A DNA stretch of 64,000 nt, taken from the IMG/VR virus record IMGVR_UViG_3300036781_000821, positions 1 through 64,000 of that record. One strand, given 5' to 3'. This document shows, one piece after another, positions 20,294-64,000 of the stretch. Source of the stretch: a virus. Position numbers and translations under genes: made by a program. The number at the start of each line of letters is the position of its first letter. Within the stretch, counting starts at the first letter, position 1. The notes beneath the pieces were generated by a model. That model was not told the origin of the DNA. It was given only the letters and a program-made list of their open reading frames with translations, and searched no databases.

Positions 20294-20368
20294 GCGGGAG
20301 TAATTCAGTGGTAGAATGCCAGCTTCCCAAGCTGGACGTCGCCGGTTCGACCCCGGTCTCCCGCTCCA
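20294..20368 (+). tRNA. tRNA-Gly (CCC)
   Basis: GCGGGAG/CTCCCGC acceptor stem, TTCCCAA anticodon loop, GTTCGA T-loop, encoded CCA. Confidence 0.97.
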
Positions 20369-20390
20369 ACTTTTCAAAGACTTACGAACC

Positions 20391-20423
20391 CGAGCACAAC
20401 CCCGTGCTCGATCTTTGCTCGAT
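20391..20423. repeat. Integrase arm-type sites (attL side)
   Basis: GTGCTCGAT 20404, TTGCTCGAT 20415, inverted CGAGCAC 20391; same motif pair at 63852/63863. Confidence 0.7.
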
Positions 20424-21509
20424 TCAGTTCACCGACAGGCTTTGCTCAAGCTGATTGAGCGCCACCTGCCTCAATTCGACCGCTGTGCTGGTATACACAT
20501 TCTGGTTAACGTCCAGGCTGTGCCCGAGCTGATCCGCTACCAGCTTCCCGTCCACGCCCAGCGCCTTCATTAAGGATGAGTGTGTCCGACGGAGGACGAG
20601 GAAATTCACCCAGCCCAACCCGACCTTGGACAGCTTGGGATGGATTGAACGCCGAAAGCAGTTGTCCTTGGACAGTGGCGTCATCCGTTCAGACGGAAAG
20701 ACCCATGCCTCTGGACATGTATCAACCGCGATCGCTCGCCACGCTTCGATCTCGCGAAGCAATCCCTCCGGCAATGCCGCCTGCCGAACGGACTGGTTGG
20801 TCTTCGGAGTATCGATCACGTTCCGGTAGGTCCGTTGCCGGATGTCCGCGTAAGCCGCCGTCATCCGACCCCACGTGAGGGCGAAAATCTCGCCCGGCCG
20901 CATTCCGGCCACGACCCCTAATTTGCAGATCAAGCGTTCACGGCCGTCCAATACTTCAAAACAGGTTTGCACCTCCTTTAAGGTCATAACGCGGCGCACG
21001 GGCTTCGCCGCTTCTCTCGGGGTGAACAGCAACATCGCCGGGTTTCGCTGGACACGACCTTCAGCCACGGCCATGTCAAAAATTTGCTTCGCGTCCCAAC
21101 GGAGATGATCCACGGTCGAGTAGGACAAACCCGCGTTGGCCTTTGCGTCCAAAAGATCCTGCAACTCGTCCCGCTTCAAGCTGGACAAGGCCCGATCTCC
21201 AAACGCGCTGACCAAATGCGTGTTCACCCTATACACGTTGTTTTCTCTCGTGCTGCGTTTCCACTTCCGACCGTAAAATTCGTAATACGGCCCGCTCACA
21301 AATTCGCCGAACGTCCAAACCCGGTTTTCGTCGACCTTGGCGTTCGCCTCATCCGCGAACTTATTCACCGCCGCCCGCGCCTGAGTCTTGGTCATCGACT
21401 TCACTGGACCCAAAACTCTGGAACGATGGCTGCCCGTGGAGTCGTAAAACATCCCGACCCACTTGCCCTTCTGCTTCTTCAAACTGCCACGCTGATACTT
21501 TTGACGCAT
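20424..21509 (-). CDS. int: Tyrosine recombinase / phage integrase
   Basis: YQRGSL arm-binding N-terminus, GMRPGEI, TPKT, LRRT, LGHS..NVY. Confidence 0.93.
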   Translation of the reverse strand: MRQKYQRGSLKKQKGKWVGMFYDSTGSHRSRVLGPVKSMTKTQARAAVNKFADEANAKVDENRVWTFGEFVSGPYYEFYGRKWKRSTRENNVYRVNTHLVSAFGDRALSSLKRDELQDLLDAKANAGLSYSTVDHLRWDAKQIFDMAVAEGRVQRNPAMLLFTPREAAKPVRRVMTLKEVQTCFEVLDGRERLICKLGVVAGMRPGEIFALTWGRMTAAYADIRQRTYRNVIDTPKTNQSVRQAALPEGLLREIEAWRAIAVDTCPEAWVFPSERMTPLSKDNCFRRSIHPKLSKVGLGWVNFLVLRRTHSSLMKALGVDGKLVADQLGHSLDVNQNVYTSTAVELRQVALNQLEQSLSVN

Positions 21510-21522
21510 TCGGATTCTCTCC

Positions 21523-21759
21523 TTATGCGTTTCCAGCGCTTCGTCCTAGCGAAGCCATCGTAGCAGCTTTTTCGTTTTGCTCGACCCACGCCAGCAACGA
21601 AGCTCGGCGCACCAATTTCCTGCGTCCAAGGCTTACGCACGGAATCGCCGGACAGCCAGGCACACGCCCAGAAACGGCCTTAGTGATGTGCGCGCGCGAC
21701 ACGCCCAACAGCTTCGCGACGTCTTCGAGTGACAGAAAATCAAACTCTTGGAGTGCCGT
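21523..21759 (-). CDS. xis: Excisionase-like HTH protein (ACG at expected start)
   Basis: FLSLEDVAKLLGVSRAHI..IPCVSLGRRKLVRRASLLAW; GAGGAGG 7 nt before ACG at 21759. Confidence 0.75.
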   Translation of the reverse strand, partial: TALQEFDFLSLEDVAKLLGVSRAHITKAVSGRVPGCPAIPCVSLGRRKLVRRASLLAWVEQNEKAATMASLGRSAGNA

Positions 21760-21771
21760 CTCTCTACCTCC

Positions 21772-22254
21772 TCACACCCACTCATGCAGCTTGCCAAGCA
21801 ATTTCTCCCATACTTCTTTCGCTCGCCAATCCAGCCATCGCAGGTACCCACGCTTGTCTAGTTGCCAACCAATGACCACACATGCAGCCATATACCCTTG
21901 ACCAATGAAGAATGCACCTCCGTGATGAACCCACTCCGCGATGTTTATAGAAAATAACGCGACCGCCGCGCCGCCAATCCAGCCAAGCACCACCAGCGTT
22001 TCATTGCGATGCCTTATGCTGCGCTTCAATTCCCGCGCCAGCTCATCCACACGAAGCGCAACATGATCAATACGCTCCAGCACAGCAGATTGATCGACCG
22101 CGACGCTTTCCCTGCTCTCGCCCGACTCCTGTTTAAGAAAATGCTGGACAGTGCTTGGCGGCTGGCCAATCCTCTCAGCGATCTTTCGGACTGATTCGCC
22201 AGCTTCGCGCAGGTCGAGAATTTGCTGACGGTATCCGTCAAGTTTGTGTGCCAT
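21772..22254 (-). CDS. HTH + coiled-coil + two TM helices protein
   Basis: ILDLREAGESVRKIAERIGQPPSTVQHFL HTH; hydrophobic C-terminus. Confidence 0.6.
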   Translation of the reverse strand: MAHKLDGYRQQILDLREAGESVRKIAERIGQPPSTVQHFLKQESGESRESVAVDQSAVLERIDHVALRVDELARELKRSIRHRNETLVVLGWIGGAAVALFSINIAEWVHHGGAFFIGQGYMAACVVIGWQLDKRGYLRWLDWRAKEVWEKLLGKLHEWV

Positions 22255-22520
22255 CAGATTGTTTTCGCTTCGATCATGCGATCCAATTTCCAACGATCCA
22301 CGTATACTCGCCGATCTATTCGGTGAAGGCAGCCGTCGAGCTTGCCGTGGAACACCATCTTTTCTACCGCGCTTTTGGTTCGTCCGATGTAAACCGCAGT
22401 CTGCTCCAGCGTCATCAATCTGGGGAAGGGGGTCTTGTCTTGACCCCCGCCCAGACGACGAGCCAGCAGCACCACAACTTGCGTAATCATGTACTGCAAC
22501 TGGTCGTTTTCTAACCGCAT
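22254..22520 (-). CDS. Second excisionase-like HTH protein
   Basis: RLMTLEQTAVYIGRTKSAVEKMV..RVYVDRWKLDRMIE. Confidence 0.7.
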   Translation of the reverse strand: MRLENDQLQYMITQVVVLLARRLGGGQDKTPFPRLMTLEQTAVYIGRTKSAVEKMVFHGKLDGCLHRIDRRVYVDRWKLDRMIEAKTI

Positions 22521-62892: not shown

Positions 62893-63115
62893 GTGACCAG
62901 CATGAGGCAGCTTGGAAAGAGCGTCAAATTTGGGCTTTTAGGGGATCTGGAGGTAAATCCAGGATAGTGGGCCTCCCCCTATCAGACGAGCTACTGAGAA
63001 GAGAAACATCTACCCCTAAGCGCTTCGCGCTTGGGAAAACCGCGTTTGCAGGGGCGCGCCAGGACCAGGCTACTCCAGAGGCGCATGGTATACTGGACTT
63101 GAGCTTAGGCTCACG

Positions 63116-63223
63116 AAAAAAAAACTTCAAAACACAAACTCAAAACCTACACACTTCACAAACTTAAAAACTACACACAAAATTAAACTCCAAAAAAAAC
63201 TTACTCTTTAAAAAACTTCTTCT
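63116..63223. other. 108-nt G-free, A/C-rich tract upstream of relaxase
   Basis: No G on plus strand between 63115 and 63224; multiple A-tracts. Confidence 0.85.
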
Positions 63224-63332
63224 GCTTTTGCTTTTTGCTGATTTTGGGCTCACCGGCTGGAGCCACCGTTTGAAGAGATGCACCTTGGAGTAGTGTAGGG
63301 ACAATCTTCCTGACGGCCGGGTAGGAGATTGT

Positions 63333-63518
63333 GTGCGTAGACCGCGTTTCGACCCCCATCGGGTCATCAACCAGATTAAGTATTGGGCCATCGAGATCAC
63401 GATCCTGGTCCTGTTTTTGAAGTGGCTCGGCGGTTCTCTTTGGCACGAGCTGGGCTTCGATCACTCGGCGGAAGCCAAAGCCGCGCAGAGCTGTGTTGTG
63501 GAACAGCCACGGAGGTAG
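63333..63518 (+). CDS. Small membrane protein
   Basis: AGGAG RBS, single TM. Confidence 0.45.
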   Translation: MRRPRFDPHRVINQIKYWAIEITILVLFLKWLGGSLWHELGFDHSAEAKAAQSCVVEQPRR

Positions 63519-63527
63519 AATCAGGCC

Positions 63528-63848
63528 ATGACCGTAGCCGAACTCCGCGAGGCCCTTGCCGGGTATCCCGACGACGCGCCGCTTCAGATCCACATGGAGC
63601 GATTGCCGGACGACAACGAAGAAGCGTTCGTCGTGAACGTCCAACCGAATTATGCGGGCTGGAGCGAGCGCGAGCATAAGCCCCACGTCGTGCTGTACGG
63701 CGAGCAATTCCCAAAGGACTTCATCGAGACGACCCGCGACCGGGTTGTGGAACGTGCAAAACAGTTCAGCAAATGGGATTGGCCTTACGGGATGTGGAAC
63801 TGGTGGGAAGCGAAACAGTGGAAGCGGACGTTTGGGCGAGGACGTTAA
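63528..63848 (+). CDS. Hypothetical phage protein
   Basis: GGAGG RBS; MTVAELREALAGYPDDA N-terminus. Confidence 0.6.
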   Translation: MTVAELREALAGYPDDAPLQIHMERLPDDNEEAFVVNVQPNYAGWSEREHKPHVVLYGEQFPKDFIETTRDRVVERAKQFSKWDWPYGMWNWWEAKQWKRTFGRGR

Positions 63849-63851
63849 GGC

Positions 63852-64000
63852 GTGCTCGATTTGTGCTCGAAGTAATCCGCGCCGAACGGCACGGGGCTGA
63901 CTTGCGGGATTCGCAATTGCTAGAACGATGCCACTGGAAACGCTAAATTCTGTGTTTCCAATTTACCGTCGTCTTCCCAAGCTGGACGTCGCCGGTTCGA
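63852..64000. repeat. attR: arm-type repeats plus duplicated 3' half of tRNA-Gly
   Basis: GTGCTCGAT 63852, GTGCTCGAA 63863; 28-bp identity 63973-64000 to 20323-20350, running off the window edge. Confidence 0.9.

Follow-up and report, generated by a model that had tools for sequence, protein, structure and literature searches.

We analyzed a 64,000-nucleotide (nt) stretch of DNA, hereafter the window, that corresponds to bases 1–64000 of the 91,887-nt IMG/VR provirus record IMGVR_UViG_3300036781_000821. The window contains a complete-looking 43.65-kb tailed prophage whose host is a soil acidobacterium. Within one pair of attachment (att) sites this element combines phage genes with a MOBF relaxase, a coupling-type ATPase and a candidate origin of transfer (oriT). 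The reading that we favor, and that we hold to be about evenly likely to be right, is that the sequence represents a temperate podovirus-like phage carrying a DNA-processing module of the kind found in integrative mobilizable elements (IMEs), which would serve in mobilization by a helper type IV secretion system (T4SS), in rolling-circle replication, or in both. We found no publication describing an integrated tailed prophage in which a single att pair encloses a MOBF relaxase, oriT and coupling protein of its own. In the literature, mobilization of prophages is reported only via separate integrative and conjugative elements (ICEs).

The element is inserted at a tRNA-Gly(CCC) gene. An initial annotation of the window had proposed that a tRNA duplication bounds the element; the repeat is cut at the window end, with the first 28 nt of attR inside the window, and on the parent record the copy at 63973–64020 matches all 48 nt of the attL core. 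No third att copy was found for either half of the core when up to three mismatches were allowed. Pfam and PHROG scans of the element identified one tyrosine integrase and no second integrase, as had been claimed, and no transposase was found. Both features of an IME at this level, a site-specific recombinase and att-bounded integration, are present in the form of the tyrosine integrase and the 48-nt repeats at tRNA-Gly. The TGCTCGA arm repeats of the initial annotation held up in part: pairs with 11-nt spacing lie just inside both ends (starts 20405/20416 on the left and 63853/63864 on the right, the latter pair spanning 63853–63870), but the motif is not enriched across the window (20 observed versus 14.4 expected).

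The record was assembled from a metagenome, and the contigs of the probable source run (Logan) are interrupted at the tRNA-derived repeat. An assembly or binning artefact that joined a phage contig to an IME contig is nevertheless highly improbable. A 15.5-kb source-run contig of uniform depth spans the region from the interior of the relaxase gene to the att core, which rules out an assembly seam at the right-hand junction; this check against misassembly covers that junction alone. Moreover, the coupling-type protein and the terminase large subunit (TerL) are each recorded on a 382,929-nt contig, apparently the same parent contig, and the same gene order was found in a different metagenome, as described below.

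We also searched for hidden internal att repeats of the kind that would reveal a separate phage inserted in an IME. None linked the junctions at 24.3–25.1 kb and 56.3–60.25 kb. The longest common word was 11 nt, which is at chance level (shuffled sequences gave a mean of 10.6 and a maximum of 16). The GC content of the mobilization (MOB) arms and the phage core was alike (0.56–0.57, with 0.60 in the right flank), and the tetranucleotide correlation of arms versus core (0.87–0.90) equaled that of late versus early regions within the phage, the right flank giving r values of 0.65–0.75. The two recombination modules and internal att site that characterize a phage-ICE tandem were not observed. With no third att site, no second integrase and no junction repeats above chance, we conclude that this is one mobile element, not two, delimited by a single att pair as the initial annotation had it.

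The terminase, portal, major capsid, tail and lysis genes by which a Caudoviricetes prophage is recognized are all present. The podovirus head/tail/lysis set described at the outset was recovered with PHROG and Pfam as the small terminase subunit (TerS), TerL, portal, major capsid protein (MCP), tail fiber, endolysin and amidase, and the portal gene is homologous to the TerL-adjacent gene in 64 relatives. The claim that mating-pair genes are lacking also stood: Pfam and PHROG scans of approximately 50 open reading frames (ORFs) of the element, some of them unannotated, identified neither VirB4 nor any other T4SS family, and the complete T4SS (including VirB4) that defines an ICE was not found. 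Nor does the element resemble an extrachromosomal phage-plasmid with plasmid replication and partition functions. It is integrated in a tRNA gene, its depth in the source run was 16.3 compared to 16.0 for the flank, and neither ParA nor plasmid Rep was found between the att sites, ParB being the sole gene of that type.

The linkage of phage and MOB genes recurs in another genome. This second provirus, IMGVR_UViG_3300015615_001206 (G001; 43,097 nt), comes from another metagenome and is colinear with the element over 27.7–56.6 kb, with 91% identity for TerL, 78% for MCP, 74% for portal and 70% for the ERF annealase. At one edge of G001 an intact relaxase (925 aa, 33% identical), accompanied by a coupled small partner and the same small transmembrane (TM) gene, adjoins an integrase unrelated to the one in our element. 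The other edge carries a coupling-type ATPase without a TM segment (497 aa, 29% identical), followed by an HTH_17 protein and a helix-turn-helix (HTH)/TM protein. Both proviruses have one and the same circular gene order, with attachment sites that seem to be on opposite sides of int. These data suggest a single hybrid lineage with diverging or exchanged arms; that a phage lacking an integrase was nested twice independently, at the same position in two different IMEs, would be far less likely.

Other searches returned more distant sequences. Relaxase scans of IMG/VR with a single protein and with an alignment gave distant matches only and missed G001; three other IMG/VR contigs (L005, L007 and L010) gave weak TrwC matches. 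JGI metagenome contigs gave no match to TerL, and coupling-protein scans found relatives of only 23–29% identity in these contigs and none in IMG/VR. The 401 Terriglobia genomes that were searched contained no close TerL (best 27% identity, in the unpublished genome G118) and one coupling-type match (28%), whose neighborhood has nothing further in common with this element.

The relaxase-helicase proposed at 60142–62892 was firmly identified. The protein passed the curated cut-offs for Pfam TrwC (207.2 bits, cut-off 25), NCBIfam MobF (163.5 bits, cut-off 100) and TIGR02686 (145.6 bits, cut-off 145.5), and its helicase part matched AAA_30 with 116.8 bits. The N-terminal tyrosine residues occupy the conserved DY position of the clade, and the three-histidine metal site HxDxxR...DPxxHxH is represented by the segment EHDCSRALDPHLHSH. 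The tyrosine and metal-site columns are invariant across 19 clade members, as are the Walker A and B motifs (GxGKT and DEAG) within the clade. The partner gene that begins at the relaxase stop codon has a weak homologue at the equivalent position in G001 (27% identity, E 2e-6).

The TraD/VirD4-like protein proposed at 22929–24482 fared less well. Its own Pfam match is weak (TraG-D_C, 30.6 bits, cut-off 22). However, the AlphaFold2 (AF2) model (pLDDT 90) consists of a nucleotide-binding domain and an all-alpha domain, and Foldseek returned TrwB deltaN70 as the best match (E 1.9e-11, target-normalized TM-score 0.65), then Cag-beta (E 1.3e-9) and DotL. A phmmer search of PDB sequences gave nothing useful. 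An exhaustive HMMER search assigned the protein to a family of ~500-aa proteins with 1139 representatives; among 50 members tested, TraG-D_C was found in 47, TrwB_AAD_bind in 26 and T4SS-DNA_transf in 18. Walker A is present as GGIGAGKT, and Walker B reads YLGEG with the glutamate invariant. Canonical type IV coupling proteins (T4CPs) hexamerize and dock on the T4SS through a membrane anchor. In this case the ORF starts with ATG preceded by an AGGAG site, an in-frame stop codon lies upstream, and the N-terminus is not hydrophobic. An N-terminal membrane segment is present in five of the eight closest subfamily members and absent from the G001 protein. The fold predicted for the TraD/VirD4-like protein is thus TrwB-like, but the membrane anchor is missing. 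As the protein has no N-terminal membrane segment and its closest subfamily lacks the Walker B aspartate, we conclude that it is coupling-type, or T4CP-like, and not a canonical T4CP. A separate observation concerns positions 24415–24753 (minus strand), upstream of the ATPase gene in another frame, where a hydrophobic segment, FLLWLAGAGCASIATLLTV, stands at the place of the N-terminal membrane helix of relatives and is possibly the remnant of an anchor that has disappeared.

An intergenic region of 440 nt separates the relaxase gene from two small plus-strand genes, and the initial annotation had placed a putative oriT here. A GAA-loop hairpin ending in TTAGG is common to both proviruses, 131–140 nt upstream of the relaxase start. 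Anchoring on this hairpin form brought out a clade motif, CCTAAGCC-loop-GGCTTAGG-GATGGTGTCT with a loop of 3–4 nt, that adjoins the MOBF relaxase gene in no fewer than 22 acidobacterial loci (in L015–L048 and L087). The stems vary with compensation, e.g. CCTAACGC/GCGTTAGG. A covariance model was then built from the chromosomal relaxase loci only, with the proviruses left out. The G001 site was its top match in 135 kb (14.4 bits, E 0.006), 131 nt upstream of the relaxase gene. The candidate in our element scored 6.3 bits (E 2.9, rank 5 in the element), which is not significant by itself; here the assignment is based on the form and position shared with the G001 site and the clade motif. We consider oriT to be supported for the lineage, while the site in this element is only a weak candidate. 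The analysis also yielded a candidate oriT consensus for a large, uncharacterized acidobacterial MOBF clade. Another match to the model, at 59801–59834, has no hairpin, lies inside the partner gene, and was rejected. A G-free, A-rich tract of 108 nt (63116–63223) separates the candidate oriT from the small TM gene; it contains repeated AAAAC(T)T units and may be an unwinding or bent region; G001 shares with this region just one short word, GAAGTTTTTAAG.

The nearest relatives of the relaxase (37–41% identity) reside in Acidobacteriaceae and Bryobacteraceae chromosomes. No homologues of the element's phage genes were found within 10 kb of 80 chromosomal relaxase loci. On the chromosome, ArdC homologues accompany the clade relaxases of loci L020 and L028, and L020 also has a ParB homologue. 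In a Bryobacteraceae metagenome-assembled genome (locus L051, 3887–9582), a 54%-identical integrase at tRNA-Gly(CCC) lies 3 kb from a 39%-identical relaxase. The L051 element is phage-free, no TerL match was found in the genome that carries it, and it is likely to be a relative of the IME parent of the hybrid. Phages with 35–40% identical TerL share portal and MCP with our element, and none of 15 records of these distant relatives contained TrwC; six of the 15 are at least 90% complete (36–40 kb). Among 50,697 GenBank phage records, the relaxase domain gave partial, low-identity matches to just two short unannotated metagenome fragments. Because chromosomal relaxase loci lack phage genes, L051 combines integrase with relaxase, and the distant phages lack TrwC, the module probably derives from an acidobacterial tRNA-Gly IME, part of which became linked to a podophage in a cointegrate of phage circle and IME. 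In the relaxase tree both phage-borne relaxases grouped with P0002, the closest relaxase homologue, inside the acidobacterial clade (SH-aLRT 99), although the pairing of the two phage relaxases may reflect long-branch attraction; the rapid evolution of both proteins is in itself remarkable.

An alternative is that the composite is recent and functionally inert, i.e. a cointegrate or an IME-prophage nesting whose MOB genes are not used by the phage. The separation of the MOB block (~12 kb) from the phage block (~31.6 kb) on the circle is consistent with this idea, as are the co-occurrence of integrase and relaxase relatives in a phage-free element at the same tRNA-Gly and the lack of TrwC in the distant phage records, including the six near-complete ones. 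However, all of the MOB genes are full length with intact motifs, and no internal att site, second integrase or compositional break was seen. As G001 has the same architecture with strongly diverged alleles, the association has persisted or re-formed under selection. We regard an inert composite as rather improbable.

The favored reading leads to the following model. As in the order originally reported, the T4CP-like gene is followed by genes for the TM protein, the HTH_17 protein, the HTH/TM protein, xis and int. On the excised circle the module would be contiguous across attP, in the order coupling-type ATPase, TM protein, HTH/xis genes, int, attP, small TM gene, oriT-like hairpin, relaxase-helicase, partner gene, ParB and ArdC. 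Int and Xis would excise the circle at the att sites, and the relaxase would nick the oriT-like site on it. The nicked circle could undergo rolling-circle replication of the type that relaxases drive in excised ICEs. Alternatively or in addition, the coupling ATPase would hand the nucleoprotein to the T4SS of a co-resident conjugative element, so that single-stranded DNA enters a new cell, where single-stranded DNA-binding protein (SSB), ArdC and ParB would aid establishment and Int would insert the element at the recipient tRNA-Gly. Spread by virions would remain available. Some Acidobacteriaceae genomes contain VirB4-like genes, at a distance from the clade relaxase, so that T4SS helpers plausibly exist.

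Several observations are compatible with a narrower function, in which the relaxase-helicase is solely the initiator of phage rolling-circle replication, conjugative transfer does not take place, and the ATPase has another role or none. Apart from an exonuclease-ERF-SSB module, Pfam and PHROG recognized no replication gene in the element, be it another initiator, a helicase, a primase or a polymerase, although several unannotated early ORFs could conceal a replication protein. The complete distant relative G004 contains an AAA_25 helicase-type gene instead of TrwC. Terminase packaging requires concatemers, which are a product of rolling-circle replication. Both phage relaxases are of unusual composition and sit on very long branches, and both coupling proteins are anchorless. 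On the other hand, an intact coupling-type ATPase occupies the equivalent place in the two phages, and ArdC and ParB are typical of conjugative leading and establishment regions. That both phages have kept the coupling-type ATPase speaks for mobilization, because proteins of this type have no known role in replication. Replication alone is an unlikely explanation, if one to be taken seriously. The mobilization and replication-only readings are compatible and not mutually exclusive.

A number of observations weigh against the favored reading. The phage relaxase branches measure 1.64 and 1.70 compared to a median of 0.18 (approximately nine times as long), which fits a changed function. The Walker B aspartate is replaced throughout the closest ATPase subfamily, neither phage-borne coupling protein has an N-terminal membrane anchor, and the covariance score of the oriT candidate in this element is low. 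A helper T4SS is not demonstrable for this host, of which 92 kb of genome is at hand. The depth of the element equals that of its flank, and neither an attP nor an attB contig was seen in the source run. Two members of the lineage were found; the G001 record is trimmed at gene boundaries, and att sites are not visible in it. Finally, the element is known here from sequence alone.

A stronger version of the proposal is a persistent podophage lineage with a permanent IME module, in which one relaxase/oriT pair would act as a rolling-circle replicon and also provide a non-lytic exit through the mating pores of other elements. We offer this version tentatively and consider it possible, with the balance of probability clearly against it. 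If true, it would mean that a virus has two modes of horizontal transmission inside one att-bounded genome. A prophage with a relaxase, an oriT-like site and a coupling-type ATPase of its own would make the boundary between viruses and conjugative elements less sharp, and could widen the phage host range beyond receptor specificity. The element also provides a system for asking whether relaxases serve tailed phages in replication, transfer, or both.

Comparison with known systems clarifies what is unusual about this element. Plasmid R388 encodes the TrwC relaxase-helicase and the TrwB coupling protein, with ArdC in its leading region. Our element resembles the R388 DNA transfer and replication (Dtr) system in the domain architecture of the relaxase (TrwC), in having TrwB as the best structural match, in its ArdC homologue, and in the hairpin-plus-nick type of its candidate oriT. 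It differs in that sequence identity is very low, the TrwB membrane domain is absent and no TrwA-type ribbon-helix-helix accessory protein was recognized; moreover, the element is integrated and phage-borne rather than a plasmid. The gpA protein of phage P2, an HUH enzyme, starts rolling-circle replication, and relaxases drive replication of excised ICEs such as ICEBs1. The proposed nicking of a specific site on a circular element by an HUH nuclease is similar, except that the enzyme here, a MOBF relaxase, has an SF1B helicase fused to it and is encoded together with a coupling-type ATPase.

Streptococcal IMEs have their own relaxase and coupling protein without a mating pore (PMC5704250, PMC5357655). 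In common with them, our element pairs a tyrosine integrase with an att site in a tRNA gene, encodes a relaxase and a coupling-type ATPase, has an oriT-like site and lacks T4SS genes; unlike them, it adds a tailed-phage packaging/head/tail/lysis set of ~31 kb, and its coupling protein is anchorless. In the phage-ICE tandems of Streptococcus, relaxase, VirD4 and T4SS are those of a separate ICE, which has an integrase of its own and is attached through accretion (PMC13651849), and the paper on the ‘conjugative prophage’ Phi1207.3 names no relaxase (PMC4260502). These cases and our element have in common prophage DNA with a possible conjugative exit. In contrast to the tandems, one integrase and one att pair enclose both gene sets here, and there is no T4SS. 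Among phage-plasmids, just two P1-like members carry mob or oriT (PMC10879196). Those two are likewise phages with plasmid-type mobility genes, whereas phage-plasmids are extrachromosomal and our element is tRNA-integrated at flank-equal depth, with ParB but neither ParA nor plasmid Rep found.

Table 1. Features of the element and its left attachment region (window coordinates)
Feature	Position	Strand	Basis or remark
tRNA-Gly(CCC), integration target; 3′ part is attL	20294–20368	+	ARAGORN (sole tRNA called)
attL core, 48-nt exact direct repeat from the tRNA-Gly(CCC) 3′ end	20323–20370	+	Sequence repeat
TGCTCGA pair, 11 nt apart; candidate integrase arm site (putative function)	20405–20422	+	Sequence
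Tyrosine integrase	20424–21509	-	Pfam Phage_integrase, Phage_int_M, SAM_3
Small excisionase-like protein, 61 aa	21523–21708	-	Predicted from translation
HTH + C-terminal TM protein; true start at the MAHKL methionine	21772–22254	-	Pfam HTH_38
HTH_17/excisionase-like protein, 88 aa	22254–22520	-	Translation; HTH_17 protein at equivalent G001 position
Small membrane protein, 126 aa, adjoining the coupling-type ATPase (putative role)	22527–22907	-	Hydrophobic segments in translation
Coupling-type (TrwB/VirD4-fold) ATPase, 517 aa, without N-terminal membrane anchor	22929–24482	-	Pfam, AF2 model
Phage late block, distal tail proteins through TerS	24936–45152	-	PHROG, Pfam; 52–91% identical to G001
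Virion amidase	29029–30612	-	PHROG/Pfam
Tail fiber	34757–35881	-	PHROG/Pfam
Endolysin	35881–36570	-	PHROG/Pfam
MCP	36892–37863	-	phrog_1357, E 8e-27
Portal	39309–41204	-	SU10_portal 21 bits (weak, below cut-off)
TerL	43262–44683	-	Homologues named terminase large subunit, some with PF03237
TerS	44766–45152	-	phrog_4044
HNH endonuclease, MmcB-like nuclease, pentapeptide-repeat protein	46873–48626	-	Pfam/PHROG
Moron: DNA methyltransferase, GmrSD_N (DUF262) protein, HEPN protein	49248–52140	+	PHROG/Pfam
Phage recombination module: SSB, SSB, ERF annealase, exonuclease-like protein (55683–56441)	53773–56441	-	Pfam/PHROG
ArdC-like anti-restriction protein	56949–57848	+	Pfam/NCBIfam
ParB-family protein	57845–59380	+	Pfam/NCBIfam
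Partner gene, 114 aa, AGGAGG ribosome-binding site, start at relaxase stop codon	59801–60145	-	Sequence
MOBF TrwC-type relaxase fused to SF1B helicase, 916 aa	60142–62892	-	Pfam/NCBIfam, intact motifs
Candidate oriT: 9-bp hairpin, GAA loop, ending TTAGG, then GGTAGATGT	63002–63035	-	140 nt upstream of relaxase gene
G-free (plus strand), A-rich 108-nt tract between candidate oriT and small TM gene	63116–63223		Sequence
61-aa TM protein	63333–63518	+	Conserved in G001
106-aa protein	63528–63848	+	Transcribed, with the 61-aa TM gene, away from the relaxase toward attR

The remaining genes were compared with those of G001 (Table 1). The N-terminus of the HTH/TM protein (21772–22254) aligns with that of a 271-aa protein at the equivalent G001 position. 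The moron proteins are 81% (methyltransferase), 96% (GmrSD_N) and 97% (HEPN) identical to their G001 counterparts (11819–14670), which suggests recent exchange or strong constraint. Most other proteins common to the two proviruses are ~50–80% identical, TerL (91%) being an exception. The pentapeptide-repeat protein (263 aa, 47835–48626) is coded by 28 tandem 15-nt units and is 75% identical in G001. Two long ORFs are probably spurious: 63201–63707 (minus strand), where the gene kept in G001 is 63333–63518 (plus strand), and 59585–60136 (plus strand), where it is 59801–60145 (minus strand).

Downstream of ParB, a tRNA-like stretch (59587–59704, plus strand) ends in the T-arm/acceptor-like sequence GGTTCAAATCCGGCCACCTGCA. 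We rejected this stretch at ~59.6–59.7 kb as a relic att site, as it has no second copy in the window, no Rfam match and no ARAGORN call at 80% thresholds; it could be an older attP relic or a decayed tRNA. Past attR (L003 about 2650–11070; record 66.1–74.6 kb) there are several long minus-strand ORFs with no Pfam matches. The left flank, upstream of tRNA-Gly (262–3648 and 15514–18621), resembles another mobile element, with genes for a DnaG/Toprim primase, a replication initiator protein A (RPA) homologue and a 1035-aa TrwB/VirD4-type ATPase with a C-terminal HTH_17 domain.

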